The notes below the pieces were generated by a model that made no database searches, was not told where the DNA came from, and saw only the letters and a list, made by a program, of their open reading frames with translations. From Patescibacteria group bacterium (GTDB lineage: Bacteria; Patescibacteriota; Patescibacteriia; PEXW01), in NCBI GenBank assembly GCA_038065235.1, contig JBBTRK010000014.1:16629-80628 (forward strand): a DNA stretch of 64,000 bases. Reading direction: 5' to 3'. Both the position numbers and the translations under genes were made by a program. Shown piece after piece: positions 9,139 to 64,000 of this stretch. Each line of letters begins with the position of its first letter. The first letter of the stretch is position 1.

Positions 9139-9179
9139 GCTATTTTTTTACTTTACAGCTTCGGTTTTTCTTCGGCACA

Positions 9180-14903: not shown

Positions 14904-15580
14904 AGACGGTACTTCCCAGTTGCTTGGTCAGCGACGAGGTGGCCGTGATCAAGCGTGAGCACGCGCTTGCGCAAACCATTGACGATTTCCCGATTGTGCG
15001 TAACGAGAACGACAGTGGTGCCAAACGCATTTATCTTCAAGAGCAGTTCGATAATCTCATTTGCATTAATAGCATCGAGGTTACCAGTTGGCTCATCGGC
15101 AAGAAGAATTTTTGGTCGGTGCACGAGCGCTCGGGCAATAACCACGCGCTGCTGCTCACCGCCAGATACTTCACGGGGGAAACGATGCTGTTTGTGTTCC
15201 AGCCCCACGATCTTGAAGACTTGAGGAACAATCTGCATGATCTTCGCGTGCGTGACACCGGCTACCTCCAGCGCGAAGGCAACGTTCTCAAAGAGTGTCT
15301 TCTGGGGCAAGAGCTTGAAATCCTGAAATACGACACCAATTTGACGCCGGAGCAGCGGAACATCTTTCAAACTAATGTGCGAAATGTCCCAATCACCAAT
15401 AATCACTCGACCTTCACTTGGGTGCTCTTCAGCGATAATCATTTTCGCGAATGTGGTCTTACCCGTTCCAGACTGCCCTACAATAGAAACAAACTCACCT
15501 GAACCTATCGTCACGCTCACATCTTTCAAGGCAGCGACGCCGTGCGGATAGAGTTTTGAAACTTTTTCAAAAGTTATCAT
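14900..15580 (-). CDS. ftsE: Cell-division ATP-binding protein FtsE
   Basis: 226 aa. Walker A GQSGTGKTT, ABC signature LSGGEQQRV, Walker B ILLADEPT. Confidence 0.9.
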   Translation of the reverse strand: MITFEKVSKLYPHGVAALKDVSVTIGSGEFVSIVGQSGTGKTTFAKMIIAEEHPSEGRVIIGDWDISHISLKDVPLLRRQIGVVFQDFKLLPQKTLFENVAFALEVAGVTHAKIMQIVPQVFKIVGLEHKQHRFPREVSGGEQQRVVIARALVHRPKILLADEPTGNLDAINANEIIELLLKINAFGTTVVLVTHNREIVNGLRKRVLTLDHGHLVADQATGKYRL

Positions 15581-25617: not shown

Positions 25618-25797
25618 CTAAACGGACTGGGAATCCCCAAGCTTTCGTTGGTAGGTTTCAACAAGTGCACTTTGAGCACGGTTGGCTTCTTGCGCAGCCT
25701 GCTTAATCAACTTTTTTTGCTCTCCTGAAGGGAGGCGAAAAAAGTTCTGGCGACCATGTTGGCTGCCTTTAAAAAATGAAAGAAGACGTGTAATCAT
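25618..25797 (-). CDS. 59-aa helical ORF overlapping the zeta-like gene stop (ATGA); candidate partner or antitoxin-like protein
   Basis: MITRLLSFFKGSQHGRQNFFRLPSGEQKKLIKQAAQEANRAQSALVETYQRKLGDSQSV, hand-translated. One codon short of the ORF-track cut-off. Start and stop overlap the upstream gene, which suggests translational coupling. Confidence 0.4.
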   Translation of the reverse strand: MITRLLSFFKGSQHGRQNFFRLPSGEQKKLIKQAAQEANRAQSALVETYQRKLGDSQSV

Positions 25798-26495
25798 AAG
25801 CTTTTTCTAAGTTGATCTTTAGTATACGGACAAACAATATGATTGTCAATATTATCAATATTGAAGCGTGTCTTTTTTACGCTTTTATTTGACCAATCTT
25901 TTTCTATGAGAAAAAGCTCCACATCCTTCTTGAACATTTCTTTTACGCGATTTGCATTTTCTCTGGCAGCAAAAAATGCCTCGATAAAAGCTTCTTTAGG
26001 TAAGTAACGACCTTCTTCTTTTTCACGAATCTGTGTGAACTTCCATGCTACTTCTGGCTCTTGATAAATATAAATAATCCCAATTTTCCGTTTACGCTTA
26101 ATTGAACGTGCAACATCTTCTATACAATATTTGTCGTCTGCGAATGTCCCATCAAGTAGAATATTCTGCCTTTCTTTTAAACAATAATCGTATAGTTTTT
26201 GCACGCCAAGAGCGGAAGCACCCTGTACTTCGTTAGAGTTACTACCTGTATATTGTGGTAGCATCTTCTTAATTTCATCAGCATCAATTCGGACACATTG
26301 TATTGACGGCTTTCGGCGAGCCAAACTCTTCACTAAACCTTCAGAAAACTCTGTTTTTCCTGCACCGGGTGAGCCCGCCATAAAAATGGTAAAGGGATCG
26401 TCCATTGGCGGATATGCACGTGGGTCGGCAAAACGAACGATGAGCTCGTCACGATGTGCCTTTAAAAAATCCACTGCGTCTTCAGCAATGCTCAT
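25794..26495 (-). CDS. Zeta-toxin-family-like P-loop kinase (AAA_33 / PezT-like)
   Basis: 233 aa. Walker A FMAGSPGAGKTEF, then the CVRIDADEIKKMLPQY segment matching the zeta catalytic region (ViDxDxfR). Low GC. Confidence 0.6.
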   Translation of the reverse strand: MSIAEDAVDFLKAHRDELIVRFADPRAYPPMDDPFTIFMAGSPGAGKTEFSEGLVKSLARRKPSIQCVRIDADEIKKMLPQYTGSNSNEVQGASALGVQKLYDYCLKERQNILLDGTFADDKYCIEDVARSIKRKRKIGIIYIYQEPEVAWKFTQIREKEEGRYLPKEAFIEAFFAARENANRVKEMFKKDVELFLIEKDWSNKSVKKTRFNIDNIDNHIVCPYTKDQLRKSL

Positions 26496-26501
26496 GGTGA
26501 T

Positions 26502-29039
26502 TTATGCCTTCCGCTCCGCGACCATCGGTGGCGGGGCAGCTGCGCCGAGCTGGGAGCGTTCCAGGATTTCTTTTTCTACGGTTTCCCGCAGGACGCCGAA
26601 CTGTTTGCGTGAGAGGCTTACCAGGTGCTCAACGAGGCCAGGTGTCGCTGGGGCCAGTGGCAACGTCTTCATGGTGAATGGCTTCGACATGGTGTTGTCG
26701 ATGAGGAGCTTTACAATTGCGGTGTACTTCTCTACGTTAGTTACGTCGAAGGCACTGAAGGTGGGGGCGAACGTCTGGGCGAACGTCTCGGCATCTTCCA
26801 CACCCACGCGGAATGCCACGACTGTGCCGACGTTACCGAACACCGCGTCGCGAATTTTTGTATCTGCGCCCTGCACCAACTGCCCGACGTACTGGTGGGC
26901 AATGGTGAGGTTCAAACGGTACTTCCGCGCTTCAGAAAGGATGGTCGCGATGGAGTCGGTAATGAAATTCTGGAACTCGTCGATGTAGAGGAAAAAATCT
27001 CTGCGCTGCTCTTGGGGTAATGATGCTCGACGTAAGGCTGCCATCTGAAGCTTCGAAACAATAATGAGACCCAGGAGGTTGGCGTTCACCTCGCCAGTTG
27101 TACCTTTCGAGAGGTTCACCAGCAAAATCTTGCCTTCGTTCATAATGCGCTGGAAGTCGAAGCCGCTCTTCGATTGACCAATGACATTACGCATCATGGT
27201 GTTCTCCACAAACCGGCCGACCTTGCTAATGAGGTAGCCCAGCATTTCGGACTTATGGAAGTCGCTGGTCTTCGCCATCTCCTTTTCCCAAAACGCCCGC
27301 ACAATAGGGTCAGTCACTTTGGAGACCTTTACCTTCTGAAACACTGGGTCGGTGAACATCCGGGGGATTTCGACGATGGTACCCGGGTGCTCGGGATCGG
27401 ACATGAGCGTGAGCATGACGTTGCGCATGTTGTGCTCGAACATTGGGCCAATCATCTCGGGTGGGAAGAGTTTCATGAAAATAGAAATCATCTCCTGCAC
27501 TGCGAAGTCTTTATCCTCGGGGTTCTCGGCATCCAGCATGTTCAAACCAACCGGGGCCTGCATATCTGACGGATTGAAATGGATAACGTCCTTCAAGCGA
27601 TGGGCGGGTATCCGACCCATGATGTCGACGATGAGGTCTCCGTGCGGATCCACGACGCACACGCCATCACCGTTCGTAATGTCCTGCAAAGCCATCTGCG
27701 TCATGAGTACAGACTTGCCCACCCCAGACTTCCCAATGACGTACACGTGGCGGCGGCGGTCTTCCCGGGCCACACGGATTTTCGCCTCTTCGCCGCGGTA
27801 GTGGCTGGTGCCGAGCAGTACGCCAGTTTTTGGCAAATTGACAGGCGGAGGGGCATTGCGCGAAAGCACCCAACGAATGTTCGGAGTTTCTGTGGTGGCG
27901 AGCGGTAAGTGCCACAGGCTGGCAAGTTCTTCAATACTCAACGTGGCGTAACGAGGCCGAAGGGTGAAACGATTGCCATCGAACATTCGGTATATGAAAC
28001 TTCGAATGATTGTTTCGTTAGAGTGCCAAGCATTCTTCCAGAAACGATTCCCCGTTTCGGGGGAAGCGTACTGGCCGAAGGCAGAAATGATATTCTGTAA
28101 ACGTACGGAAGCAGATTGCTGGGTGGCACTACTGACGATAATGCGAATGTTCACGTCGAGCGCTGGCTTGGTGTTCTTCTCTTGCAGGCGTTGGATGAGT
28201 TCCTCTTGCACAGGACTGACAGGTTTGGGCATTTCCTCTTGCTGCACACTCTTCTTCGTACTGAAGAACATGCTCCAGAGCCCACCAATAATTTTCCCAA
28301 CTAAAGAAGGGTTCGCCTTCCCACCCGCACGGAGATTCCGAATGGATGCTGCGGCACGGGTATGCCAGCGGGGGTGCGAAGACCGGCACACGTACTGGAT
28401 AACCGCTGACTCATCAGGATTCAGTTTCGAGAGCGCATTGGTTAAACCCCCGAGCGGGTCAACATCCATGCGACGGTACGAGAGAATGGGGAAGAGCGAC
28501 CGTTGCCGAAGACTCAGTGCTGCGGCCGCGACGTGGGACGTGGGACGGAAAGGGTTATACTCGGGCGTGACGAGTATTTCGGCGTCAGCGTACTGGGCTT
28601 GAATCTGCTGCTCCATGAACTCTTTCATCGGCTTTGGAACCACAACGTAGAAGGTTATGAGCTCACGGTCGGCAACGATTTCTAAACTGAAGTGGTCGTT
28701 CCGCCCCCGGCCGAGCGTGTGGTACCAACGCTGCGCGCGCATGTTGCCTAGGAACGAGAAGAATGACTCCCCCACGCTAATCTGCTCCTGCATTTGCTGG
28801 ATGCGCGATGGTCCTTTCCCTGAATCCTCTTCTTGCTGCTCCTTTGGCAGCGTTACCATGAGGCAGACGAGTTTTTCGGTCGATGGTTTTGCGCTCCGTC
28901 GACGAATGATGAAGAAGATGACCAATCCGAGCCCAACCACTGCGCACGCAATACCAAACTGAACCCAAGGAAAAACCGTGGCATAGTCGTTCTCGAGGGT
29001 ACCGACCTGCGCCTGCGCCGCGTGGACGAACTGCAGCAT
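26502..29039 (-). CDS. Type IV coupling-protein-like ATPase (VirD4/TraG/TraD family) with N-terminal TM and a ~400-aa N-terminal extension
   Basis: 845 aa. Walker A HVYVIGKSGVGKS followed by the T4CP-typical VVDPHGDL (compare vLDPKGE). Walker B FLYIDEFQNF. N-terminal TM GIACAVVGLGLVIFFII. Confidence 0.65.
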   Translation of the reverse strand: MLQFVHAAQAQVGTLENDYATVFPWVQFGIACAVVGLGLVIFFIIRRRSAKPSTEKLVCLMVTLPKEQQEEDSGKGPSRIQQMQEQISVGESFFSFLGNMRAQRWYHTLGRGRNDHFSLEIVADRELITFYVVVPKPMKEFMEQQIQAQYADAEILVTPEYNPFRPTSHVAAAALSLRQRSLFPILSYRRMDVDPLGGLTNALSKLNPDESAVIQYVCRSSHPRWHTRAAASIRNLRAGGKANPSLVGKIIGGLWSMFFSTKKSVQQEEMPKPVSPVQEELIQRLQEKNTKPALDVNIRIIVSSATQQSASVRLQNIISAFGQYASPETGNRFWKNAWHSNETIIRSFIYRMFDGNRFTLRPRYATLSIEELASLWHLPLATTETPNIRWVLSRNAPPPVNLPKTGVLLGTSHYRGEEAKIRVAREDRRRHVYVIGKSGVGKSVLMTQMALQDITNGDGVCVVDPHGDLIVDIMGRIPAHRLKDVIHFNPSDMQAPVGLNMLDAENPEDKDFAVQEMISIFMKLFPPEMIGPMFEHNMRNVMLTLMSDPEHPGTIVEIPRMFTDPVFQKVKVSKVTDPIVRAFWEKEMAKTSDFHKSEMLGYLISKVGRFVENTMMRNVIGQSKSGFDFQRIMNEGKILLVNLSKGTTGEVNANLLGLIIVSKLQMAALRRASLPQEQRRDFFLYIDEFQNFITDSIATILSEARKYRLNLTIAHQYVGQLVQGADTKIRDAVFGNVGTVVAFRVGVEDAETFAQTFAPTFSAFDVTNVEKYTAIVKLLIDNTMSKPFTMKTLPLAPATPGLVEHLVSLSRKQFGVLRETVEKEILERSQLGAAAPPPMVAERKA

Positions 29040-29592: not shown

Positions 29593-29907
29593 CTACGGTT
29601 CCTGCGATGGTGGGGTTGCCGGTGGTTCTTGTAGTTTCAATTTCTCCTGCTTACGCTGCACCCACAGCGTATGGAAATACATGTACGTACCGGTTAGAGC
29701 CATGATGAAGAGCACAATACTGAAGTACGTACTCACTTGCCCGTGCAAGTACCGTACACGACCAGCGGATAACCACGCCGGCAGCCACTCGAACCAGCTC
29801 GGGTACCGCATGATGGAACCCGTACCCGACATAACCACGAACAACCCAAGGAAGATTAGCACGAGGTACCGGTGGATTCTTCGACTGAACGTGTAGAGAT
29901 TAATCAT
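29593..29907 (-). CDS. Small membrane protein (2 TM)
   Basis: Start set at MINLY (GGGAGG lies 9 nt upstream) rather than the longer ORF-track start. Two hydrophobic helices. Confidence 0.45.
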   Translation of the reverse strand: MINLYTFSRRIHRYLVLIFLGLFVVMSGTGSIMRYPSWFEWLPAWLSAGRVRYLHGQVSTYFSIVLFIMALTGTYMYFHTLWVQRKQEKLKLQEPPATPPSQEP

Positions 29908-30406
29908 CGTCTTCATCCTCCCGTTCCCCGCTTTGTGGAATAAGCGTACTAACATTGGCATTCACTTGGGTGATCGTATTCGCTGTCGTCGTACTGCCGA
30001 GTGTTCCCAAGCGGAGAGCAGCTAGGTCAGCGCTCGCGCTTGATGAATGCGTGCCATTACCACCGCGAGTTGCAAAAGCTGTGGTCGCGTCCTTCCCGCA
30101 ATACGGAATAATACGACTTGCGCCTCCCGGGTGTTTGGTGAGATACCCGGTCACGGCGTACACTCCCTTACTGACAATGATCCAGCAGTCACTTGCACTA
30201 CTGTGCCTCGCAACTGTTGCAACATCGAGATTAACCGAAGGAGAAGCTGAGGCAGAGGTATTCGTGAGCCCTGACGTAGTATTCGTCGTGGGGCTACTAA
30301 CGAAGGGAACTGAAATAACTAAACTATCGTACCGAGCCGAAAAAAACGCGACAATTCCAACAACGGCAACGAGACCGACAAGTCCAATGGTATTCTCTGT
30401 CTTCAT
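29900..30406 (-). CDS. Membrane-anchored cytochrome-b5-like heme/steroid-binding domain protein
   Basis: 168 aa. N-terminal TM. Cyt-b5 signature HSSASDCWIIVSKGVYAVTGYLTKHPGG...IIPYCGKDATTAF. Thr/Ser-rich linkers. Acidic tail. Confidence 0.6.
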   Translation of the reverse strand: MKTENTIGLVGLVAVVGIVAFFSARYDSLVISVPFVSSPTTNTTSGLTNTSASASPSVNLDVATVARHSSASDCWIIVSKGVYAVTGYLTKHPGGASRIIPYCGKDATTAFATRGGNGTHSSSASADLAALRLGTLGSTTTANTITQVNANVSTLIPQSGEREDEDDD

Positions 30407-30466: not shown

Positions 30467-31054
30467 CTACTCGCCGAGTGCTTGGGCAACTTTCCCAGCA
30501 ATCTTCAGGTCTGGTACAAGATCTTTGCCATTGGTATCCCAACTCACCGGGCAAGCATGGCCGGGGTTATTGCGCACATAGGTCAAGGCTCGGAGCTTCC
30601 GCACTATTTCGCTTGCCGAACGGCCAATGTTCTCGGCCACAACTTCTGCTGACTGGAGCAAACCTTCAGGATCGATAATGTACACACCCCGATCTGCAAT
30701 GCCACTGACTTCATTAAGAATACCAAGTGTTCGGGCAAGGAGCCCGGCGTGATCAGCAGCCAGTGGGTAACGCACATCTTTGAGTAAGGTCTCGGTTTCG
30801 ACCCATGCTTTATGGGTGTAGACCGTGTCTGTACTCACCGCCAGAACCTCTGCCCCAAGTGCCTGAATGTCGACGTAATTCCTGGCAAGGTCACGTAATT
30901 CAGTTGGACACACGTACGTGAAGTCCGCCGGGTAAAAAAACACTACAAGCCACTTCCCTTTGAATGCAGCGAGGTTTACATCCTTGCGGCTGCTATCGTG
31001 TGGATGGTACGTATCAAGATTGAAGTCTGGAAATGCTTGGCCAATTTTGGGCAT
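30467..31054 (-). CDS. Peroxiredoxin (AhpC/TSA family)
   Basis: 195 aa. Peroxidatic Cys motif FFYPADFTYVCPTEL. Resolving-Cys region NPGHACPVSWD. Confidence 0.9.
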   Translation of the reverse strand: MPKIGQAFPDFNLDTYHPHDSSRKDVNLAAFKGKWLVVFFYPADFTYVCPTELRDLARNYVDIQALGAEVLAVSTDTVYTHKAWVETETLLKDVRYPLAADHAGLLARTLGILNEVSGIADRGVYIIDPEGLLQSAEVVAENIGRSASEIVRKLRALTYVRNNPGHACPVSWDTNGKDLVPDLKIAGKVAQALGE

Positions 31055-31072: not shown

Positions 31073-31891
31073 TTAAACTGGGCGAAGTGTGCCTGCGAAC
31101 ACCTGCCAGGCCAGCAGTGACTTCGCCACGAGGCTGAGGATAATATACGCTCGCTCACCGTAAAGGTAATCCTTCCACTTCCCAATCTTCTTGTACTGCA
31201 ACACCATATTGATTGCGAAGCAGTTGAAGAACAGGAAGATGGAAAAGAAAATCCAGTACACGAACGTCGGTGCGTGTCCGTTTGGCCCGCCCGAACCGAA
31301 GAGGTAGAACGCGACAATGAGCCAAGGGACGAAACCGGCAATACTCCCGAAAATGAATGACGTCCAATCAGTGCGCTTCGTCGTCTGGTTGTGCAACTCC
31401 ATCATCCAGCCAAAGAGCAACATCATCATGTTCAGGAAGAAAATGAGAAGGAGACTAGAGAGGTCGGCCATACCCGTGAGCATGACGACGATGACAATCA
31501 TGAGCGAACTGGAAAACGCGTACTCAATCCAGCGTGCCAAGTTCATGCCTTTCTTCAAATTGTTCTCGTACCATGCTCGCACCGTTGGGAGGCACGATAC
31601 CGCGAAGTGCGCAAAGGCAGAGAGAAAGAAAAAACCTGCAACGAGCGGCCCAATTTGAATATCTGCAATGGTCTTGAGTACGGGCACAAGCATGTTCCGA
31701 ATTGGATCCATCTGCACATACGCCGTAGTCACCGGCAAATTGAAGCTGCTGCTAGCAAAGAGCAACGCCACACCTTGCAAGAAGTGCAAACATGCCATAA
31801 CGATGTTGAACCGATAGAGCTTCTTCAACTTACGCTGCGTAGAGGTGATGGCGGGCATTTCGATAGACGTTGATGTTACTTTCATGAGCAC
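31073..31891 (-). CDS. Heliorhodopsin (7-TM retinal protein, inverted topology)
   Basis: 272 aa. Strong similarity to characterised heliorhodopsin segments: NLARWIEYAFSSSLMIVIVV...LLFGWMMELHNQ, GFVPWLIVAFYLFG, and TM7 ERAYIILSLVAKSLLAWQVFAGTLRP with the Schiff-base Lys in LVAKS. True start may be at Met12. Confidence 0.8.
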   Translation of the reverse strand: MLMKVTSTSIEMPAITSTQRKLKKLYRFNIVMACLHFLQGVALLFASSSFNLPVTTAYVQMDPIRNMLVPVLKTIADIQIGPLVAGFFFLSAFAHFAVSCLPTVRAWYENNLKKGMNLARWIEYAFSSSLMIVIVVMLTGMADLSSLLLIFFLNMMMLLFGWMMELHNQTTKRTDWTSFIFGSIAGFVPWLIVAFYLFGSGGPNGHAPTFVYWIFFSIFLFFNCFAINMVLQYKKIGKWKDYLYGERAYIILSLVAKSLLAWQVFAGTLRPV

Positions 31892-47177: not shown

Positions 47178-48380
47178 TTACTTAATGTTTAACGTCCGAC
47201 CTTCGGGCAAAACTTCGATCCAGGTATTGCCGGGGAGGAACGTCGCTGGGGTTCCGTCAGCCAAGGTGAATACGGTGCGGTCTTCAGATTTCACTTTGCT
47301 CCATGTGATATCCAGAACCTGCCCTTTCTGAAACAGCTGCGCTTTCCCCGTACCCGTCACTGACATAGCTAAGCGCCCCTTCTCACCGACTGCTATTTTG
47401 TTAGAGACACGCTGAATGACAAGGTTGGTGACGCCAAGAGTTGCTTTCGTCAAACGATCCTGGTGCTCTTTGCCAGCCTGACTGCGTAGCCACTGCTGCT
47501 TCGCCGCATCGTAGGTATAGCTCACCTCGGTACTCTTCGTGCGGCCAGTGAAATAGAAGGTGACGTTCTTCGCGGCAACCCCAGCAGCGAGCGTAGTGCC
47601 GAACGTCCACGGTGTTAGTGTGATGTCGGAGTACTTAAGTTTATTCGCCCGAGTGGTGATGAACATTTTCATCCCGCTAGTGTACAAATTGTGCGGCGCT
47701 GGGCGAGTACTATCGCGAAAGAATGCGTTCGACGCGCTCCCAATGCCGTTGATGTCGTGGATACGTTCACGACGGATGTTTGTGAGCGCCTCGGGCGAAC
47801 CACCCGCATGGGCGTAAGCAGCCTCGTACTCTGCGAGCCACTCTAAGAAATACTGGCGCGCCGAGCGTACTGGGCCAATTTCTTTCACATCCCCTTGGTC
47901 AAACACCGCCATGAAACGCGTAATGCCGCCTTCGACGAGCGCTTCGTACACAATCGATGCAGCCTGCAGCGAAGATTGTGGCCGTGCTGATCCTGCATTA
48001 TCAATCATGACCGCGACTGGGTAGAAGTGCCCGTGGCTGAAACGGTTCCCCCCGGTGAGGTCAGGGGCAAACTCTGTTGGCACAGTGCTGACTTTTTGCT
48101 TCGTGGTGGGAACGACGGTAATCGTTGCTTTCTTTGTGAAGTGTACGAATGCCACCAAGGACATACCGAGTGTGACGACGAGAATGGCGGCGAGGGTGAG
48201 GTAGGTCCAGCGCGTCCAGTGGTGGTGGGAGAGTGGCGCTAACCCAAGCGGACCCACAGGTGTGGGTGTGGGGATTTGCGGTTTCGCAGGCGGGATAACT
48301 GATTTCACCGGTACTGCTTTAACGATAATATTTTTCTTCGGCGCTGGTTTTGCGTTTACGGTTGGTTTTGGTTTTGGCAT
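47178..48380 (-). CDS. DUF3048-domain protein (YerB-like), membrane-anchored
   Basis: 400 aa. DNAGSARPQSSLQAASIVYEALVEGGITRF is the DUF3048 core. Confidence 0.65.
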   Translation of the reverse strand: MPKPKPTVNAKPAPKKNIIVKAVPVKSVIPPAKPQIPTPTPVGPLGLAPLSHHHWTRWTYLTLAAILVVTLGMSLVAFVHFTKKATITVVPTTKQKVSTVPTEFAPDLTGGNRFSHGHFYPVAVMIDNAGSARPQSSLQAASIVYEALVEGGITRFMAVFDQGDVKEIGPVRSARQYFLEWLAEYEAAYAHAGGSPEALTNIRRERIHDINGIGSASNAFFRDSTRPAPHNLYTSGMKMFITTRANKLKYSDITLTPWTFGTTLAAGVAAKNVTFYFTGRTKSTEVSYTYDAAKQQWLRSQAGKEHQDRLTKATLGVTNLVIQRVSNKIAVGEKGRLAMSVTGTGKAQLFQKGQVLDITWSKVKSEDRTVFTLADGTPATFLPGNTWIEVLPEGRTLNIK

Positions 48381-48410
48381 AGTTTTTTCGTTGCTGGGAG
48401 CGAGTGAGAA

Positions 48411-49484
48411 TTAGTAGGTAACGTATTTCTCTGGTAAGTCTACCACCTCTACCCAGGTTTGCCCGCGGTTGAGCTGGATAGCCGCCCCAGTACTGTCGAG
48501 TAGCTGAAGCTGTGATTCAGGTGAGGATTTCTTCCAGGTTCCAGTGACCATCTCGCCATCGCGGAAGAGCAAGAGCTTCCCTTCGCCGACAATCACAATG
48601 TCCCGCCGAAGCTTATCGAAAAGCTTCGACGTGGTGAACATGATGGCAACGTTCTTAGGCTCTAGTGCGCCGCCTTCCTTATCTATAGCGAGCGTGCCGG
48701 CCTGGCTGCGCTTGTACACGTTGCGGCTCGCATCGTAGGCAAAAGAGACACGGTAACTTGCTGTAGAAAAGTCCACGACAATAGGCTTCGTCGTAGGCGT
48801 TGCTACCGGCGAATCATCTTTAAAAGACCAGCTCTCATAGTCGCCGCGATCTTTGAATTTCATTGCCCGCCAGCCGAGCTCCATAAGGTGGAGGTTGGTG
48901 AATAGCGAGTGCTCTTGCGCCCGTCCAGGAATATTGTAGAAATTGTACTTCTTATAGAACTGATTGAAATCCGTAATCTTTGTCTTCTCAATTTCGATTT
49001 GCGCTTGCGGGGATTGCCCGGCGTGAACGTAGATACCATTGTAGGCACGGGCAAGCTGGACGAAGTATGGCCGAGCCGAACGGATTGGACCAATGTTGAG
49101 TTTACCATTCACCGCGAAGATGGCGAGAAAACGCGTAATACCGCCTTCCGCGAGCGCTTCATACACCACACCTGCTTTCGAAAGGCCACTCTGCGGCCGC
49201 ACCGAGGTGTGATTCTCCACCACCATCATGAGCGGCAGGTGGTTGGACTTCTCTGACTCCACGAGCACGCCGTCGAGCTTCCGGGGTACAAGCGCGGCGG
49301 TATCTAATTCACTATTCGTATTCGCACTGCCATCATCGTTGGCGGCGCTCCCACGGAATGTCAAGTAGCCCCCAATGCCAATTAGCACCAGCGCTCCAGC
49401 GCCCGCAGCGATCAGCCAGGGCCAGCGGAGCTTACGCTTGCCAAACGTATAGTCACTTGGCCGATCGGTGAGCTTCTGACCCAT
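48411..49484 (-). CDS. DUF3048-domain protein, paralog
   Basis: 357 aa. ENHTSVRPQSGLSKAGVVYEALAEGGITRF. Tandem with the previous gene. Confidence 0.65.
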   Translation of the reverse strand: MGQKLTDRPSDYTFGKRKLRWPWLIAAGAGALVLIGIGGYLTFRGSAANDDGSANTNSELDTAALVPRKLDGVLVESEKSNHLPLMMVVENHTSVRPQSGLSKAGVVYEALAEGGITRFLAIFAVNGKLNIGPIRSARPYFVQLARAYNGIYVHAGQSPQAQIEIEKTKITDFNQFYKKYNFYNIPGRAQEHSLFTNLHLMELGWRAMKFKDRGDYESWSFKDDSPVATPTTKPIVVDFSTASYRVSFAYDASRNVYKRSQAGTLAIDKEGGALEPKNVAIMFTTSKLFDKLRRDIVIVGEGKLLLFRDGEMVTGTWKKSSPESQLQLLDSTGAAIQLNRGQTWVEVVDLPEKYVTY

Positions 49485-56879: not shown

Positions 56880-58103
56880 ATGGTCAAACACGTCGAACAC
56901 CACGAACCGCACCACCCCCAACGGCACACCACCACCCCCCGCCAACGCGTGTGGGTCATTTCGTTCGTCGTTGCGGCGACAGTGCTCTTCGCTGGCGTAC
57001 TCTTTTTGGCCATGGGCAAAAGCCGCATTGCTTTCACCTGGCTGCCGCAAACAATTGAAGGCACGACAACGTTAACGGTCGCGGTAGAATCTACGGGTGA
57101 TGAAATTCCAGCAGCGTTTGTCGAGAAGAGTGTGGAGGTGAGTAAAGTGTTTACCGCTGAAACCAAAGCAACAACACCACAACCTCAACCATCAACGCCA
57201 ACGGTTCCGACCTTCACCGGCAAGGCGCGCGGCAAAGTTACTATCACCAACCGCTACAGCAAAGCCCAACCACTCACCGCTGGCACTCGGTTGAAGTCAC
57301 CTGACGGTCAAATTTTCCGCACCCAAACACGAGTGGATGTACCGGTTGGCGGATCCGTGACCACCGAGGTTGTAGCTGACGTTGCTGGCGAAGCAGGTTC
57401 CCTGCCGAAAGGTACAACGTTCATCCTCCCTGCGCTGTGGGCTGGGTTACAGGATAAAATTACCGGCATCTCAACCGAGGCCTTCCACGATGATGACCAG
57501 TCAACAGCAACCACAACTTCTACAAACCCGGGGTTAACCGCAAACGAGCTGGCGAATGCTGAACAAGTGCTGCTGCAAGAAGCCATTACCCAGGCGCTCC
57601 CCGACCTGCAGAAGCTCGTCCCAACCGGCCGAACACTCTACCCCGGCTTGGTGGATGCCACGACGGTTAAACGTACCGGACCGGCAATTGGCGACAAAGC
57701 TTCGTCCTACACGCTTTCACTCACCGTAAAAACCACGGCCATTGCCGTTGACCCCGCAAAACTTACGGAGAGTGCGACCGCCCTGCTAACCACTTCCCTC
57801 TCCCCAGACCTCCAACTCCTAACCATCGATCCTGCAACCTTTGGCTACACCCTAAAAAGCACGGACGCTAAGAAGCAGCGCGCTGACGTGACCCTCGTCG
57901 CCCGCGGGACGACGATCCCCGCGCCTGCCCACCGACTCCTCCAGCAAGTAACCTTCGCCGGCAAAACAGCGGACGAGGTGCGCACGCTCTTGAGCCAAGA
58001 GCAGGCCGTTACGAATGTTCTCGTTGAGCTCATGCCTTTCTGGAACCGCCGGGTACCTTCCAACGCGAAAGATTTGCAATTGGAAGTGACCCGGGCGAAG
58101 TAG
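56880..58103 (+). CDS. Hypothetical membrane-anchored protein
   Basis: 407 aa. His-rich N-terminus. One TM (VWVISFVVAATVLFAGVLFLAM). Thr-rich extracellular region. Confidence 0.45.
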   Translation: MVKHVEHHEPHHPQRHTTTPRQRVWVISFVVAATVLFAGVLFLAMGKSRIAFTWLPQTIEGTTTLTVAVESTGDEIPAAFVEKSVEVSKVFTAETKATTPQPQPSTPTVPTFTGKARGKVTITNRYSKAQPLTAGTRLKSPDGQIFRTQTRVDVPVGGSVTTEVVADVAGEAGSLPKGTTFILPALWAGLQDKITGISTEAFHDDDQSTATTTSTNPGLTANELANAEQVLLQEAITQALPDLQKLVPTGRTLYPGLVDATTVKRTGPAIGDKASSYTLSLTVKTTAIAVDPAKLTESATALLTTSLSPDLQLLTIDPATFGYTLKSTDAKKQRADVTLVARGTTIPAPAHRLLQQVTFAGKTADEVRTLLSQEQAVTNVLVELMPFWNRRVPSNAKDLQLEVTRAK

Positions 58104-58185
58104 CCAACACGGACGCGCACCTTGGAAAACGTGCGCTTGACCTTATGGTAACCCCGAGCGCACCTTTTCCAAGGTACGCGTTCTC

Positions 58186-58281
58186 ATTGTCATTGCGAGA
58201 AACGACCAACGGGAGTGACGCGGCAATCCCGATGTACCAACGGGATTGCTTCGGGTCGAGTACGACCCTCGCAAAGACAAT
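58186..58281 (+). promoter_or_regulatory. Structured leader upstream of thrS (long-range helix ATTGTCATTGCGAG/CTCGCAAAGACAAT enclosing a hairpin with a UGU-containing loop)
   Basis: The outer 14-bp helix has one mismatch. The inner hairpin CAATCCCG-AUGUACCAA-CGGGAUUG presents U-G-U-A in the loop, i.e. the tRNA-Thr(UGU) anticodon plus A37. Confidence 0.3.
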
Positions 58282-58351
58282 ACAAAACCCCCGCGCACGA
58301 AGCGCAGGTAAATTTGAGAATTTGTCAATAATCAGGCTATACTACAAACCT

Positions 58352-60193
58352 ATGCCTGACCAACTCACCAACCTCCGCCACTCGCTAGCCCACCTGCTCG
58401 CTTCCAGCGTGCTCGAGCTCTTCCCAGACGCCAAGCTCGGCGTCGGCCCGACTATCGAGCATGGCTTCTACTACGATTTCCAACTCCCCCGCCCGCTGAC
58501 GCCGCAGGACTTGCCGAAAATTGAAAAACTCATGCGCAAGCGCATTGGCCAGAGCCTTGGTTTTGAACGCGCTGAACTTTCGGAAGTACAAGCCAAGGAG
58601 AAGTTTGCGAAGCAGCCATTCAAGCTCGAACTCATCCACGACCTCGTCACTAAGGGAACAACGGTCTTTGACGAACTGGAGAAACCTGTCGGCAAGCCGA
58701 GTGCGACCATCACGATGTACACCACGGGCAACTTCGTGGACTTGTGCCGCGGCGGGCATGTGGAGAGCACCAAGGACATCCCAGCCGACGCGTTCAAGCT
58801 CACGCACATTGCCGGCGCGTACTGGCGCGGTAGCGAGGATAACCAGATGCTCCAGCGCGTCTACGGCGTCGCCTTTTTAACGAAAGCTGAACTGGACGCC
58901 CACCTGAAGATGCAGGAAGAAGCCAAAAAGCGCGACCACCGGAAGCTCGGCCAAGACCTAGACCTCTTCACCTTCTCTGACAGCGTCGGCAAAGGCTTGC
59001 CCCTGCTCACCCCGCGCGGTTCGGTCATCCGCCGCGAGCTGGAACGCTACACCGTAGACACCGAGCTGGCCCATGGCTACCAGCACGTGTACACCCCGCC
59101 GCTTGCCAAGACTGACCTCTACAAGACCTCGGGCCACTACCCGTACTACAAAGACACAATGTACCCAGTGATGAAGGTGGACGACGACGAACTCATCCTG
59201 CGGCCCATGACCTGCCCGCACCACTTCATGCTATTCAAGGACAAGCCGCACTCTTACCGCGACTTGCCCCTGCGCTTCGCCGAGCTGGCTTCGCAGTTCC
59301 GCTACGAAAAATCCGGGGAGCTCACCGGCCTCATGCGCGTGCGCATGTTCACCCTCGCGGACGCGCACATCTTCGTGGCACCCGAGGGTGCGGAGAAAGA
59401 AATTACGAGCGTGCTCAAACTCATTGATGAAATGAACCAAACCCTGGGCCTGAAAAAAGGCGTAGACTACCGCTACCGCTTATCACTCGGTGATCGCACA
59501 GACACCAAGAAGTACTACAAAGATGACGCGGCGTGGGAGCGCGCCGAGGGCGTGTTGCGAAAAGTGCTGCAAGGCCAGAAAACGCCGTTCTTCGAAGCGC
59601 CAAACGAAGCCGCCTTCTACGGCCCGAAGATTGACGTGCAGGTGAAGAAGGTCAACGGCCAGGAAGAGACCGCCTTTACCGTGCAGTACGACTTCGTCAT
59701 GCCCGAGCGCTTCAACCTGGAGTACGTGGGCAAAGACGGCAAGATGCACCGGCCAATCGTCATTCACCGCGCTTCCATTGGCTGCTTGGAGCGCACTATT
59801 GCCTTCCTCATCGAGCACTACGCCGGCGAGCTTCCCTTGTGGCTCTCCCCCGTGCAGGTCGTCGTCATCCCGGTTGGCTTGAAGCACGAGAAGGCCTGCC
59901 AGAAACTGGGCAAAGAACTGCGTGAAGCGGGCTTGCGCGTGGATGTGTTCACGGCTGACCAATCTGTGGGTAAAAGCATCCGCATCGCAGAGAAGCAGAA
60001 GTCACCGTACATGCTGGTCATTGGCGATAAAGAAGTGAAGTCACCCAAGCTGCACGTGCGCGAGCGGGCCCGCCCGGCATCGCCTTCGGCATCAGCCGAT
60101 GGCGGACGGGGCAAAGAAAAACTACGTCTCGTCGCGAAGAAGTCATTCATTGCTGAGTTGCTAAAGAAGATTCAAACGAAGGCCAAACGCTAA
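58352..60193 (+). CDS. thrS: Threonyl-tRNA synthetase (lacks the N-terminal TGS domain)
   Basis: Start set at MPDQLTNLRHSLAHLLA (N2/SAD HxxxH). Class-II motifs and the anticodon-binding domain are present. Basic C-terminal extension. The ORF-track N-extension is leader sequence. Confidence 0.9.
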   Translation: MPDQLTNLRHSLAHLLASSVLELFPDAKLGVGPTIEHGFYYDFQLPRPLTPQDLPKIEKLMRKRIGQSLGFERAELSEVQAKEKFAKQPFKLELIHDLVTKGTTVFDELEKPVGKPSATITMYTTGNFVDLCRGGHVESTKDIPADAFKLTHIAGAYWRGSEDNQMLQRVYGVAFLTKAELDAHLKMQEEAKKRDHRKLGQDLDLFTFSDSVGKGLPLLTPRGSVIRRELERYTVDTELAHGYQHVYTPPLAKTDLYKTSGHYPYYKDTMYPVMKVDDDELILRPMTCPHHFMLFKDKPHSYRDLPLRFAELASQFRYEKSGELTGLMRVRMFTLADAHIFVAPEGAEKEITSVLKLIDEMNQTLGLKKGVDYRYRLSLGDRTDTKKYYKDDAAWERAEGVLRKVLQGQKTPFFEAPNEAAFYGPKIDVQVKKVNGQEETAFTVQYDFVMPERFNLEYVGKDGKMHRPIVIHRASIGCLERTIAFLIEHYAGELPLWLSPVQVVVIPVGLKHEKACQKLGKELREAGLRVDVFTADQSVGKSIRIAEKQKSPYMLVIGDKEVKSPKLHVRERARPASPSASADGGRGKEKLRLVAKKSFIAELLKKIQTKAKR

Positions 60194-60204
60194 ACTAACC
60201 AAAA

Positions 60205-60237
60205 CGCCCGCCCCAATACTGGGACGGGCGCTTTTTT
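60205..60237. terminator. Bidirectional rho-independent terminator between thrS and the convergent protease operon
   Basis: CGCCCGCCCC-aatact-GGGACGGGCG followed by TTTTTT on the plus strand, and by TTTTGG on the minus strand. Confidence 0.6.
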
Positions 60238-60248
60238 AAACGTTTTGG

Positions 60249-60392
60249 CTAGTTGGCGAACCCGCCGAGGTAAACCGCAAACCCGAAGGTTACGCCGAGG
60301 GCTACGACAGTGGCAATAGCTATACCAATCGTCACCTTTGTACCCACGGAGAGTTTCGTTGTTTGGGTTGTCTGGGTCATTGGTGAAGGCAT
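60249..60392 (-). CDS. 47-aa small membrane protein downstream of the dockerin-protease gene
   Basis: MPSPMTQTTQTTKLSVGTKVTIGIAIATVVALGVTFGFAVYLGGFAN. 10 bp after the upstream stop. Not in the ORF track (<60 aa). Confidence 0.35.
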   Translation of the reverse strand: MPSPMTQTTQTTKLSVGTKVTIGIAIATVVALGVTFGFAVYLGGFAN

Positions 60393-60402
60393 AGGTGTAG
60401 TA

Positions 60403-63400
60403 TTACTGAACTGCCTTGAGAGCGTCCAGGACTTTGGGGTTTTTCGGGTTGATCACTGACGGAATGGGGATAAGTTTCGCTTCTAGCGCTTTCAATGTGA
60501 GGGCTGAATTTTTCATCAACGCTAGTGCGGCAGTGCCCGCAACGTAGGTGCTGCTCACCGATGTGCCTTCAAAGCTCACCCCGAGCGCTGCACCTGGAGC
60601 ATTCACCAGCGCACCGGTATTGGTGTACGTGGCAAGCCCTTTGCCGTTCGACGTCGTGGCGCCAACCGAGAGGACGCCGCTCACGTTCGCTGGGAAGACG
60701 CGCGAGATAGGTGTGCTGTCATTCCCAGCCGCACCGACCACGAGCATACCCGACGCTTTCGCGTAACGGACGACGTCGGCGAGGAGTGTAGAAGCGCCAA
60801 CACCGCTAAACGGGAGCTCAGCAATATCTGCTCCACGTATTATTGCGTAAACCAGACCATTCGCCACACTCAACGCTGTGCCATTACCCTTGCAGTCTAG
60901 TACGCGGATCGGAATAATTTTCGCGAGCGGTGAGACACCAGTCTTCGAGACAAGTATTTTGGCTAGCGCTGTCCCGTGACCCTGGCAATCAGTGACGACT
61001 GGCGTTCCGTTGATTGTATTCCAACCCTCTACATCAGCAATGTATCCATTACGGTCATTGTCTAGAGCATTAGCAAGTTCTTTCGTTGAGGCAATTGTTC
61101 CTTCCAGCTCAACGACCATGGGTTTTACGCCGCTATCTAGCACTGCAACGCGTACATCACTAGGTAATGTACCACCACCACTTACCGGGCACGCCCGCTT
61201 CGCTAAGATGATGACGTCGGCAACGTTCTGCTTGCCGTCGCCATTCACGTCTGCACGAACCGCAGGTGATGCAACCGGCCCTTTCTTAAAGTACGTGGCA
61301 TTCAAAAACTTCACGTCACGACAATCAACCAGGTTGTCGGCATTCGCATCTCCAGAAAGTACACTTGTCAAAGATTGCTCAGCTTGCAGGGTTGTCACAT
61401 ACGTAAGCGCATCGGCAGCGTCCACTGCTCCATCACCGTTCACATCGGCAGTGAGAGACACGGTACCCTTTGAAAATACGCCATTCACCACAATGTCAGC
61501 GTCAGCCCAATTTACCTTGCCATCACTATTGAGATCTGGCAACGGTTTAGTCGTTTTATTAAGCTTGAGCAGGCGGGCGAGATCGTAGGTATCAAGAATA
61601 TTTTTCTTCCCGTCATTGTTCACATCGGATGGCGTCTCAACGCTAGCTGCAAGATCGGCTGGATTAACTGCACCATCATTATTCGCATCTCCCGGCAATA
61701 CAACAGGAGTCGATATTTCGTTCAACTTGGCATTAAGTGCCAGGACATCTAAGGGGGTTACGTCACTATCGCAATCCACATCTGCGCGATCTTTGAGCGC
61801 TGGGAGTGTTGCCTTGGCGTACATAATGTTTGCAAGTGCAGTAAGGTCTGTCTTGGTGACACTCCCATTCGCGTTGACGTCGCCGTTCAAGAAGGTGGTC
61901 GTGCCTACAGTCCGCACATTTGCACATACCGGTGCGGGTTGTGAGAGGAACACATACTCGACCATTGCGGTAACATCAGCAATGTCTACATTACCGTCAC
62001 CATCGATGTCAGCTTTCGCCAAATCAGGCGTCGGGCCATTTTCGAAAAGGTAACTCACTAAGTAATCCAGATCAGCACCGTTTACCTTACCATCGCCATT
62101 TAAGTCTGCCAGTGCGGCACGCGCCTTAATCGGTATATACACCATTTCTACCATTCGAGTAACGTCTGCAATATCGACATTTCCATCAAAGTCAAGGTCA
62201 ACACGGCTCAGTGGGCTCGGTGCTGGACCTTTCTCATACAGGTACGCTACGAGGTGGTTGAGGTCAGTAGCCGTAACCCTGCCGTCACCATTGCTATCGC
62301 CCAAAAAGTATGTTGGCACTATGACTGGCTGGACAACGCCTCCATCGGCATCGGAAACCGCACCAGAACTCAAAGTTGTACTTCCGGCTGGACTAGCCAC
62401 AGCTGCTTGCACCCCATCATTGGTGCTATACAGCAGGCTAACCAAGAACGTTACATCGGTAATGTCGAGCGCACCATCGAGATCCATATCCACGAGCCCA
62501 ATTGGGCTTGGCGCTGGGCCGTTCTCAAAGAGGTACGCGACGAGATAATCAAGATCTCGCTTATCAACAACACCGTCTCGGTTGGCATCGCCTTTGCCAT
62601 AGTTGAGAATACCTTGCGTATTCGCACCGTACAGCACCTCCACAGCCATGGTGACATCGGTAATATCTACATTCCCATCTTTATCATAGTCGGCGGCACT
62701 CAATGGGCTGGGGGCTGGACCTTTCTCATACAGGTACGCGACGAGGAAATTCAAATCATCCACAGTATACTTACCATCAGCCGTAAGGTCGGCATACCCT
62801 GCGGTCAAGTTCTTATAGAGCGTGTCGATAAGTGCGGTCACGTCGGCAATATCAATGTCGCCGTCACGATTCACGTCGGCTGCGATAGTACTCTTGGGTG
62901 CCGGACCCTTTAAGTAAAGAAAATTCACCAGTATGCGCAGATCCTTACCGTCAATAACCTTATCGAGGTTGCAGTCACCCGCTGCAGGCGCTGCTGCATT
63001 CTGGGCTTCCAAGAGTTTCACCGTCGTTCCGGCAGTGGTGCTCGAGAGTGAGCGTCCACCTGCTGCCAGTGATACCTTTCGGTTCGTCTCGACCTTTTCA
63101 ACACCTCCTTGCATGCGGAGCGCATTGGAAACTTGATTTAAATCTGCGGTCGCCGGGCTGACGCGAACCACGTACCACTGCTGCAGTGCCTTCGCTGTGC
63201 CTGCTACATCAGCGGCAGTTCCGCGCTTGTTTCGCGTAGCATTAGTCACGCTCGTCAGCTGCACCGAGTTGCTGACGACTGGGGTTATGCTCTGGAGGGT
63301 CGCAATTTTCTGCGTGATCGTTTCAACATTGCGCGTCACTGTCCGTAGACCTTCTCGCTTCTTCACTTGCGTCACGACTGGAACATTCACCGGTTTCACC

Positions 63401-63705
63401 AGTGCCTTCTGCAACGTTTGCGTCCGGCTCAGCTGCGTGCTATTCGCCGCGAACTTCACCAGTAACTCCCCCGCGACGTACCCATTTGCCGATTTCGTCA
63501 CTTTGGGACCAACGGCGACAGAAGTCCCCCTATCCGATACTGGCACTAACCGGATGAGCAGGGCAGCGAGCACGAATGACGTGCAGAGCATCGCGATCGC
63601 CGTCATGACGACCATCGAAAGCCGCACAGCCGTGTATGTTGTGGCCTGCGTTTTTACTTCAACCTTCTTCCCTTTACTCTGCGGCACCTTAGTTGGCGTT
63701 GGCAT
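60403..63705 (-). CDS. Membrane-anchored subtilisin-family (S8) serine peptidase with I9-like propeptide and ~9 tandem dockerin-type (Ca-binding) modules
   Basis: 1100 aa. N-terminal TM. Propeptide-like GELLVKFAANST...VEKVETNRKV. Repeated DxNxDGxVNxxD motifs (DVNRDGDIDIADVTALIDTLY, DLNGDGKVNGADLDYLVSYLF, etc.). C-terminal S8 triad: VAVLDSGV (D), HGTALAKIL (H), GAAGND (N), GTSVSSTYVAGTAALAL (S). Confidence 0.75.
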   Translation of the reverse strand: MPTPTKVPQSKGKKVEVKTQATTYTAVRLSMVVMTAIAMLCTSFVLAALLIRLVPVSDRGTSVAVGPKVTKSANGYVAGELLVKFAANSTQLSRTQTLQKALVKPVNVPVVTQVKKREGLRTVTRNVETITQKIATLQSITPVVSNSVQLTSVTNATRNKRGTAADVAGTAKALQQWYVVRVSPATADLNQVSNALRMQGGVEKVETNRKVSLAAGGRSLSSTTAGTTVKLLEAQNAAAPAAGDCNLDKVIDGKDLRILVNFLYLKGPAPKSTIAADVNRDGDIDIADVTALIDTLYKNLTAGYADLTADGKYTVDDLNFLVAYLYEKGPAPSPLSAADYDKDGNVDITDVTMAVEVLYGANTQGILNYGKGDANRDGVVDKRDLDYLVAYLFENGPAPSPIGLVDMDLDGALDITDVTFLVSLLYSTNDGVQAAVASPAGSTTLSSGAVSDADGGVVQPVIVPTYFLGDSNGDGRVTATDLNHLVAYLYEKGPAPSPLSRVDLDFDGNVDIADVTRMVEMVYIPIKARAALADLNGDGKVNGADLDYLVSYLFENGPTPDLAKADIDGDGNVDIADVTAMVEYVFLSQPAPVCANVRTVGTTTFLNGDVNANGSVTKTDLTALANIMYAKATLPALKDRADVDCDSDVTPLDVLALNAKLNEISTPVVLPGDANNDGAVNPADLAASVETPSDVNNDGKKNILDTYDLARLLKLNKTTKPLPDLNSDGKVNWADADIVVNGVFSKGTVSLTADVNGDGAVDAADALTYVTTLQAEQSLTSVLSGDANADNLVDCRDVKFLNATYFKKGPVASPAVRADVNGDGKQNVADVIILAKRACPVSGGGTLPSDVRVAVLDSGVKPMVVELEGTIASTKELANALDNDRNGYIADVEGWNTINGTPVVTDCQGHGTALAKILVSKTGVSPLAKIIPIRVLDCKGNGTALSVANGLVYAIIRGADIAELPFSGVGASTLLADVVRYAKASGMLVVGAAGNDSTPISRVFPANVSGVLSVGATTSNGKGLATYTNTGALVNAPGAALGVSFEGTSVSSTYVAGTAALALMKNSALTLKALEAKLIPIPSVINPKNPKVLDALKAVQ

Positions 63706-63904
63706 ATGCGCTTGTATTATGACGAAAGCTCGAACGCTCCCTAAGGAGCGCCGAAATTATGAAATAGAGAGTTGAGTAGCTATTCCCTTCGTTTGGCAGT
63801 GCATGGTATGGGTATTACTTTGATTTCTAAACCTATTATACCACGTCTGAACGAGTTTTGCAACAGTTAACAATATCGCTATGGATAAATGCTAGAATAC
63901 ACGC

Positions 63905-64000
63905 ATGGAACAGCGAGTTATTGCAATTGTTGGGCAAACGGCAACTGGGAAATCTCAACTCGGAATCGTTCTCGCAAAAAAATTCCATGGGTCAATTGTG
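63905..64000 (+). CDS. miaA: tRNA dimethylallyltransferase, N-terminal fragment (runs off the window)
   Basis: MEQRVIAIVGQTATGKSQLGIVLAKKFHGSIV: P-loop GQTATGKS, as in the MiaA N-terminus. TAGAAT box 6 nt upstream of the ATG. Confidence 0.6.
   Translation, partial: MEQRVIAIVGQTATGKSQLGIVLAKKFHGSIV

Follow-up and report, generated by a model that had tools for sequence, protein, structure and literature searches.

The reverse strand of a 64,000-nucleotide stretch of contig JBBTRK010000014.1 from a Patescibacteria group bacterium (the window in what follows) encodes a subtilisin-type (S8) surface protease with a domain arrangement that is unusual among subtilases and remarkably constant. As judged from its sequence, the protein is a pro-subtilase that is anchored in the membrane, faces the outside of the cell and has kept its active site intact, with nine tandem dockerin modules between the prodomain and the catalytic domain. 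Subtilases with non-cellulosomal dockerins are already known, and the exact protein is public under an automatic name only. The dockerin array is tentatively read here as a calcium-dependent ruler or tether for the surface pro-subtilase and not as the classical plug of one dockerin into one cohesin, a reading to which we give a little less than an even chance.

The coding sequence (60403..63705, minus strand, as are all protease features given below) comprises 1100 amino acids plus the stop codon and leads from a transmembrane (TM) helix through the prodomain and the nine dockerin modules to the S8 protease, as defined by the list of open reading frames (ORFs) and the Pfam matches to Dockerin_1 and Peptidase_S8. 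The same list places a 47-amino-acid single-pass micro-protein on the same strand (60249..60392), 10 bp 3' of the protease stop codon, so that both ORFs named in a preliminary description of this DNA, and the gap between them, proved to be real. Residues 1-53 (63547..63705), assigned by hydropathy and the AlphaFold2 (AF2) model, consist of a Lys-rich cytoplasmic tail (1-28) and a single TM helix (29-53). The latter is the sole hydrophobic stretch of the protein (KD19 <= 2.46) and coincides with an AF2 helix at 27-52. Since the tail ahead of this single helix is Lys-rich, with a charge of +6/-1, the segment is predicted to be an N-in (type II) signal anchor. Across the aligned orthologs, conservation of the TM helix (0.65) is similar to that of the folded domains, versus 0.38 for the cytoplasmic tail. 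An extracytoplasmic location is also suggested by the 18 calcium loops described below and by three Cys pairs assigned by position (594/645, 795/839 and 907/938), each residue of which is Cys in 16 of 19 members.

The catalytic domain spans residues 850-1100 (60406..61158; Pfam PF00082, invariant columns) and begins right at the Asp-bearing beta-strand. Pfam Peptidase_S8 (PF00082) matches residues 850-1078 with E=5.4e-24 and 85.4 bits against a cutoff of 21.8. The catalytic residues D857 (VLDSG), H910 (GHGT) and S1049 (GTSVS) and the oxyanion residue N995 (AAGND) follow each other in canonical order and are invariant in 19 homologs, which bears out the initial assignment to the S8 subtilisins. 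The domain also contains a conserved calcium-type loop (879-891) and the Cys pair C907/C938. PDB sequences matched by this domain include proteinase K, thermitase and subtilisins, with E-values from 1e-11 to 1e-17. The best NCBIfam match, the mycosin of type VII secretion systems (TIGR03921), was rejected at 70.2 bits against a cutoff of 278.75.

Residues 78-213 (63067..63474) form an alpha/beta domain with a long beta-hairpin, the core of which was modelled by AF2 with a predicted local distance difference test score (pLDDT) of 80-93. By transitive profile evidence this N-domain is a homolog of the subtilase N-terminal prodomain of the PF16361/PF22148 kind. Direct Pfam matches to these families stayed below their cutoffs (PF16361, 20.5 versus 30.5, in 10 of 19 members; PF22148, 20.2 versus 21, in 9 of 19), and Pfam scans of seven N-domains singly brought no gain over the scan of all 19. 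Foldseek gave no significant match for the domain, and a search of its profile against PDB sequences returned only a chance-level match to phage Gp15 (E=0.36). The decisive link came from a search of the N-domain family profile against 1.84 billion cluster representatives, which gave 14 matches in total. Six of them have the same architecture, and seven of the remaining eight carry PF16361/PF22148 prodomains, with library-wide E = 4e-6 to 8e-4. In the subtilases P0037, P0038 and P0040 the prodomain lies directly ahead of the S8 domain, with a gap of 28-40 residues. An identity with the extracellular domain of FtsX was considered as well: the Pfam family FtsX_ECD matched 5 of 19 members, and hhalign against the extracellular domain of the window's own FtsX gave a Prob of 0.3%. 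It was set aside because the exhaustive profile search yielded subtilase prodomains and no FtsX.

Collinearity with ordinary subtilases was assessed in silico with an array-deleted construct, in which residues 60-242 were joined to residue 844 and everything after it. The array-deleted family aligned with conventional pro-subtilases by hhalign with a Prob of 99.95% and E=4.5e-38 over 389 columns. The alignment is unbroken from the prodomain to past the catalytic Ser, with good column confidence through the prodomain. Since the protein without its array aligns continuously with conventional pro-subtilases, the array is an insertion at the pro/mature junction. The preliminary description had proposed an I9-like propeptide separated from its catalytic domain. 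Profile search and collinearity support a subtilase prodomain homolog far from the S8 domain, but I9 itself gave no direct match: neither the whole protein nor any of the 19 N-domains matched PF05922 (Inhibitor_I9) in Pfam at E <= 1. The hhalign comparison of the N-domain with the subtilisin E propeptide gave a Prob of 0.6%, and the aligned piece was the 'VxxVExD' end of I9. With the prodomain ending at about 213 and the S8 domain starting at 850, the two are not immediate neighbours.

Residues 214-242 (62980..63066), delimited by invariant columns and AF2, make up the pro/mature junction. They comprise a conserved 'AAA' stretch (~213-216) and an AF2 helix (231-238) with the invariant residues A234 and Q235. 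In the catalytic domain, residues 849-1070 align to residues 24-242 of subtilisin BPN'. As the S8 match begins only at BPN' residue 24, the usual first helix is missing after the array. Helix 231-238 precedes the array at the spacing of a conventional first helix and aligns, at low column confidence, with 'GLKKINAAQAW' of conventional subtilases. The junction is thus a candidate autoprocessing region, and helix 231-238 a candidate for the displaced first helix of the S8 domain.

The array itself was assigned to the dockerins by Pfam, in which Dockerin_1 (PF00404) scores best by far (E=1.1e-60, 202 bits against a cutoff of 22.9, 10 stretches). In the scan of the whole protein EF-hand_7 reached 43.5 bits in one stretch only, and other EF-hand models fell far below Dockerin_1; thrombospondin-type-3 (TSP_3), cadherin and RTX models were not listed at E <= 1. 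The dockerin identity proposed earlier is thus confirmed and, with Dockerin_1 on top and no TSP3 or RTX model listed, the repeats are not classed as one of the other repeat types that had been considered. A regular expression, the module alignment and a self-built hidden Markov model (HMM) agree on exactly nine two-loop modules of 47-59 amino acids each at residues 243-843. The initial estimate of about nine modules of roughly 57 amino acids therefore stands in count and is close in size, but the array really covers residues 243-843 and not 250-780. With 601 amino acids and 18 calcium loops, it is strongly acidic (90 D/E versus 44 K/R).

All modules were placed by the module HMM and the alignment, and each is marked by two pairs of invariant Asp residues. 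Module 1 spans residues 243-301 (62803..62979; HMM domain 1; D244/D255 and D277/D288), module 2 residues 305-363 (62617..62793; D306/D317 and D339/D350; also supported by AF2 helices) and module 3 residues 372-430 (62416..62592; D373/D384 and D406/D417). They are followed by a probably flexible linker (residues 431-468; 62302..62415), which was recognised by pLDDT and conservation: AF2 gives a pLDDT <50 for residues 429-465, the conservation of the linker is 0.46, and the same gap is found in every homolog. Module 4 (469-527; 62125..62301; D470/D481 and D503/D514) is the top-scoring HMM domain, and module 5 covers residues 533-590 (61936..62109; D534/D545 and D566/D577). A 17-amino-acid conserved linker carrying C594 precedes module 6 (608-666; 61708..61884; D609/D620 and D642/D653). 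Module 7 (672-718; 61552..61692; D673/D684 and D694/D705) is a short form, which according to the module alignment is without most of helix 1. Module 8 (723-778; 61372..61539; D724/D735 and D754/D765) is followed by module 9 (785-843; 61177..61353; D786/D797 and D819/D830), which contains the Cys pair C795/C839. Modules 1-5 belong to one subtype with a 'YL(F/Y)xxGPAPSP' connector, and modules 6-9 are more divergent.

The internal layout of the modules is that of a dockerin. Each has two 12-residue calcium loops with acidic or amide ligands at positions 1, 3, 5 and 12, each loop being followed by a helix as expected of an F-hand, and AF2 arranges the module as alpha1, a short alpha2 and alpha3 (for instance, helices 315-326, 335-338 and 348-359 of module 2). 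Asp occupies positions 1 and 12 in 18 of 18 loops and is invariant there across the 19 aligned members. A canonical EF-hand pair of the calmodulin type was rejected: loop 1 of each module is preceded by a linker of 4-9 residues without an entering E-helix, and a match of modules 4 and 5 to calmodulin (E=3e-5) covers the loops and F-helices only. The region of module 6 matches the dockerin 2ccl_B of Clostridium thermocellum Xyn10B (E=1.3e-4). Conservation within the modules peaks at the calcium ligands and the hydrophobic core, with 1.0 at loop positions 1 and 12 and 0.71-0.92 at positions 5, 6, 3, 16, 8 and 20. The positions equivalent to cohesin contacts (10, 11, 17, 18 and 22) are among the least conserved (0.45-0.62). 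The usual context of a dockerin, a single C-terminal copy on an enzyme or scaffoldin, is not found here, where nine internal copies lie N-terminal to the catalytic domain.

The arrangement is not peculiar to one assembly. An identical protein (P0001) from a 7.9-kb contig is on public record as 'MAG: dockerin type I domain-containing protein [Patescibacteria group bacterium]', and 19 further full-length or near-full-length relatives share 34-77% identity over lengths of 1037-1118 amino acids, among them entries named Candidatus Kerfeldbacteria and Candidatus Parcubacteria. The alignment used throughout holds 19 sequences, the window protein and 18 relatives. Nine modules with identical spacing are present in 23 of 23 members (34-100% identity), that is, in the 19 aligned sequences and four more distant ones. 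Between species each module is closest to the module at the same position (0.47-0.58 on the diagonal versus 0.28-0.44 off it), and each is conserved like the catalytic domain (0.63-0.72 versus 0.68). A profile scan of genome contigs (alignment A1) was discarded as a taxonomic map, since it responded to S8 patterns in general and returned S8 proteases from many phyla. Its two loci from Patescibacteria, L025 and L052, encode ordinary S8 plus FG-GAP proteins outside the nine-dockerin subtilase family.

Assemblies of metagenomes from short reads can misassemble internally repeated coding DNA, and a repeat number created by collapse or expansion had been a concern. A 33-mer quoted as a DNA-level repeat in the preliminary description does recur, as an exact copy at 62713 and a copy with 2 mismatches at 62221, where 0 would be expected by chance. 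Otherwise the repeats show up in the protein or as a mere 60-73% identity between the DNA copies of the modules, and Tandem Repeats Finder reported no array within the gene when run on 59500-64000. Given these divergent copies, the constant count in 23 members from independent assemblies and the identical protein recorded from another contig, an assembly artefact is effectively refuted and a collapsed or expanded repeat is of no concern.

If the array acts as a calcium-dependent ruler, Sec-dependent insertion would, on sequence features alone, put everything after residue 53 outside the cell. The prodomain may then fold onto the S8 domain and block it as in ordinary pro-subtilases, as the collinearity suggests. 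The array, lying between these two domains, would have to close into a loop in the zymogen if the prodomain acts in cis. Loaded with calcium, the nine modules would form a stiff arm of fixed length, to which the invariant number, spacing and calcium ligands point. A cut in the conserved junction (~214-230) would activate the enzyme, and the arm could then present or tether the active protease past the wall or S-layer, with surface proteins of its own cell or of a host as possible substrates.

Several points weigh against this proposal. To our knowledge, cohesin binding is the sole well-established function of dockerins. The stiffness of the array and the docking of the prodomain and helix 231-238 on the S8 domain are inferences, and the equivalence of this helix to the first helix depends on hhalign columns of low confidence. 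The module-by-module orthology is blurred in the three most distant homologs, and co-evolution of the modules with a partner that differs between species would make their surface positions variable as well. Finally, ordinary subtilase maturation would strip the membrane anchor: once the prodomain is cleaved off, the anchor is lost with it and the array is needed for retention, which favours a docking function. The main rival explanation holds that the prodomain is left in the membrane and that the released protease is held by its nine dockerins on a cohesin-like or other receptor of its own or a host surface, which could be a scaffoldin, an S-layer or a glycan. It would amount to a protease-bearing, non-cellulosomal cohesin-dockerin system of very high avidity. 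The true Dockerin_1 matches with the three-helix F-hand layout and the match of module 6 to the Xyn10B dockerin are in line with such docking, and modules 6-9 differ from one another while each is conserved at its position, as if they had separate jobs. Dockerin-bearing S8 peptidases are known from cohesin-bearing Cloacimonadota (PMC8542988) and from Halobacterium (PMC2605481), and an essential dockerin-bearing envelope protein has been described in the patescibacterium Southlakia (PMC10633639). A cohesin was found neither in any ORF of >=150 amino acids in the 64-kb window nor among the called genes flanking five homolog loci, a search that was limited to 64 kb of one genome and homolog flanks of about 2.5 to 10 kb, and the module HMM detected no second dockerin protein among the other ORFs of the window. 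Moreover, the positions equivalent to cohesin contacts are poorly conserved, and avidity alone needs neither an invariant nine nor a fixed spacing. Multivalent docking is held to be rather unlikely, though it is the strongest competitor of the ruler.

A different and unlikely geometry takes the array not as a linear stalk but as a 600-residue excursion, placed in the loop that joins the first helix of the subtilase fold to its first strand. Prodomain, helix 231-238 and catalytic body would assemble as an ordinary pro-subtilase at the membrane side, from which the nine calcium-loaded dockerins would stand out as a closed arm whose length is fixed. If true, this would be an undescribed protease-rooted surface appendage of bacteria of the candidate phyla radiation (CPR). 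Binding of calcium or of a partner could pull on both ends of the array and so gate protease activation, and the 47-amino-acid micro-protein could serve as a membrane co-anchor. The fusion of the TM anchor to the prodomain, the release of which would detach the enzyme, can also be explained by a prodomain-locked binding protein similar to PCSK9 or mycosin, a membrane receptor or adhesin in which proteolysis is limited to self-cleavage or absent. The mycosin of type VII secretion systems is the best NCBIfam match of the S8 domain, and PCSK9 chains are among its PDB sequence matches, but the mycosin score is far under threshold, and the invariance of triad, oxyanion Asn and flanking motifs over 34-100% identity argues for catalytic use; we regard a locked protein as improbable. 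Even less credit is given to a calcium-dependent self-association, along the lines of the polymerising structure suggested in the preliminary description, in which neighbouring arrays would bind each other and form a polymeric lattice or fibre on the surface. The acidic array with its 18 calcium sites could bridge molecules, and the gene is conserved, single-copy and core-like. However, no data point to polymerisation, all calcium loops are complete intramolecular EF-type loops, and the protein has kept both its prodomain and a protease with full competence, neither of them needed in a polymer of purely structural function.

The micro-protein has the appearance of a genuine partner gene. At each of 7 loci out of 7 its ORF follows the stop codon of the protease gene at a distance of 4-12 bp, and the TM protein that had been noticed downstream is thus real and conserved. 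It consists of a polar N-terminus, one TM helix (KD19 2.33) and an invariant C-terminal Y-x-G-G-F. Pfam offered no family for it, and a homology search with the 47 amino acids returned 2 matches, both on contigs that carry the protease, ORFs so small being rarely called. The gene is probably translationally coupled to that of the protease, and its product may pair with the unusually conserved TM helix of the latter. The gene order around the pair is gatB, miaA, protease and micro-ORF, then thrS, a Baseplate_J-like gene, dnaE and ftsW. In some loci the micro-ORF and thrS are set apart by one to four additional small genes. Synteny around the protease is kept down to the homolog with 34% identity, and the G+C content of the gene matches the rest of the window. 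Protease and micro-protein, best read as a two-gene unit of the cell envelope, are vertically inherited in a clade of Patescibacteria (CPR) and behave like core genes.

Other genes of the neighbourhood were recorded in passing. Four related loci (L002, 13585-14112; L084, 6394-6855; L085, 6334-6753; L088, 13858-14283) have a small standalone Peptidase_C39 gene (139-175 amino acids) inserted after the micro-ORF and before thrS, which the window, L001 and L086 lack. The gene may once have belonged to the unit of protease and micro-protein as a third member that was then lost, or it may be unrelated to it. The listed thrS ORF (58145-60193, plus strand; 682 amino acids) has an N-terminus about 70 residues longer than that of its relatives (583-613 amino acids). 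The first residue of these relatives corresponds to Met70 ('MPDQLTNLRHSLAHLL'), so that translation probably starts at 58352. A protein of about 400 amino acids with a weak match to phage Baseplate_J-like proteins is encoded between dnaE and thrS (56880-58103, plus strand). Its gene also occurs in L001, L002, L086 and L088 and behaves as a core gene and not as prophage cargo.

Farther away in the window, a heliorhodopsin gene (31073-31891, minus strand; 272 amino acids; Pfam PF18761, E=1e-96) adjoins genes for a peroxiredoxin (30467-31054) and a cytochrome-b5-like protein (29900-30406). On the minus strand at 25794-29039, a zeta-toxin gene (25794-26495) adjoins that of an 845-amino-acid VirD4/TraG-like type IV coupling ATPase (26502-29039), a pair that looks like a mobile-element or conjugation remnant within an otherwise housekeeping region. 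Two adjacent DUF3048 paralogs of 400 and 357 amino acids (47178-49484, minus strand) are probably secreted. At 8518-9992 (plus strand) this reduced genome has an SOS-type pair, lexA followed by a truncated-looking gene for a Y-family (IMS) polymerase-like protein of 270 amino acids. No Pfam family at E <= 0.001 was found for a 751-amino-acid ORF (11516-13771, plus strand) or a 320-amino-acid ORF (5198-6160, minus strand); the former adjoins ftsEX (13977-15580) and a gene combining DPBB with a D-Ala-D-Ala carboxypeptidase (15577-17562).

The prodomain of subtilases is an intramolecular chaperone that normally lies right beside the catalytic domain. A conserved family in which prodomain and S8 domain are 600 residues apart tests the reach of this chaperone coupling and implies a looped zymogen. 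The dockerin fold is seemingly used here in bulk and in fixed copy number, with no visible cohesin, which bears on the role of non-cellulosomal dockerins. The ultra-small CPR bacteria have surface proteins that are prime candidates for contact with a host, most of them uncharacterised, and a core, single-copy, syntenic protease with its micro-protein provides a concrete target. In the papers searched we found no description of the order prodomain, nine dockerins and S8 domain, nor of the linked micro-protein.

Among known systems, calcium-rigidified extenders such as cadherin ectodomains, the extenders of RTX adhesins and the thrombospondin type-3 wire hold a functional head at a set distance from the membrane by means of tandem calcium modules, the calcium ligands and number of which are conserved. 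The likeness of the present array to them is an analogy only, for its modules are built of F-hand helices instead of beta-sandwiches or a disulfide-rich wire. Closer in fold are the type I dockerins of cellulosomes (PF00404; for example Xyn10B, PDB 2CCL chain B), which share the duplicated F-hand segments of 22-24 residues and the 12-residue calcium loop (D1, N/D3, D5, D12) followed by a helix, as well as the short middle helix. Unlike these, the array has nine internal copies in place of one C-terminal copy and a distinctive connector in modules 1-5. Neither the 64-kb window nor the flanks yielded a cohesin, and the organism is not cellulolytic.

The homologous prodomain and the S8 domain follow each other in the same order in the PF16361/PF22148 subtilases P0037, P0038 and P0040, which are collinear with the present protein once the array is left out. 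In them about 30-40 residues separate the end of the prodomain from the S8 domain, whereas 601 residues of dockerins intervene here. Conventional subtilases have a cleavable signal peptide, in place of which the present protein has an N-terminal TM anchor. Subtilases that combine with Dockerin_1 on a secreted or surface protein are known from Halobacterium (NP_280653.1, Subt-(Dockerin_1)2) and Oceanobacillus (Sub_N-Subt-PA-Dockerin) (PMC2605481) and from the Cloacimonadota, which have cohesins together with S8-dockerin peptidases (PMC8542988). In all of these, one or two dockerins come after the catalytic domain and the prodomain is adjacent to it, whereas here nine dockerins precede the S8 domain and split off the prodomain. 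The essential dockerin-bearing envelope protein of Southlakia (SEML1_0315; PMC10633639) was also considered and was rejected as an S8 relative, being an Ig/FnIII protein of ~927 amino acids instead.

Other metagenome proteins have dockerins in tandem too: five modules are present in P0047 and P0049, and P0051 has about nine degenerate HMM matches. The modules of P0047 and P0048 are of the same dockerin subtype ('YIFxGGxAPxP') as those of the protease, and several of them are interleaved with Cys-rich 'CTDSDGG' domains in the 606 amino acids of P0048 (L087, 2158-3978). The contig of P0048 also carries a DEAD-box helicase gene adjoining an ERCC4-nuclease gene, a pairing that we take to be associated with archaeal Hef. 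Given this Hef-type gene pair, the subtype may occur in archaea too. In the Omnitrophota, 'dockerin-type giant proteins' with many repeats have been described and a role in attachment proposed (bioRxiv 10.1101/2023.11.21.568195). Neither these giants nor P0047, P0048, P0049 and P0051 have an S8 domain, a prodomain or a known fixed number of repeats. The Omnitrophota proteins are far larger (>30,000 amino acids), and the other multi-dockerin proteins are smaller and contain Cys-rich domains. What they all have in common with the protease described here is a large number of dockerin or EF-type repeats, carried by extracellular proteins that ultra-small or uncultured microbes anchor in their membranes.

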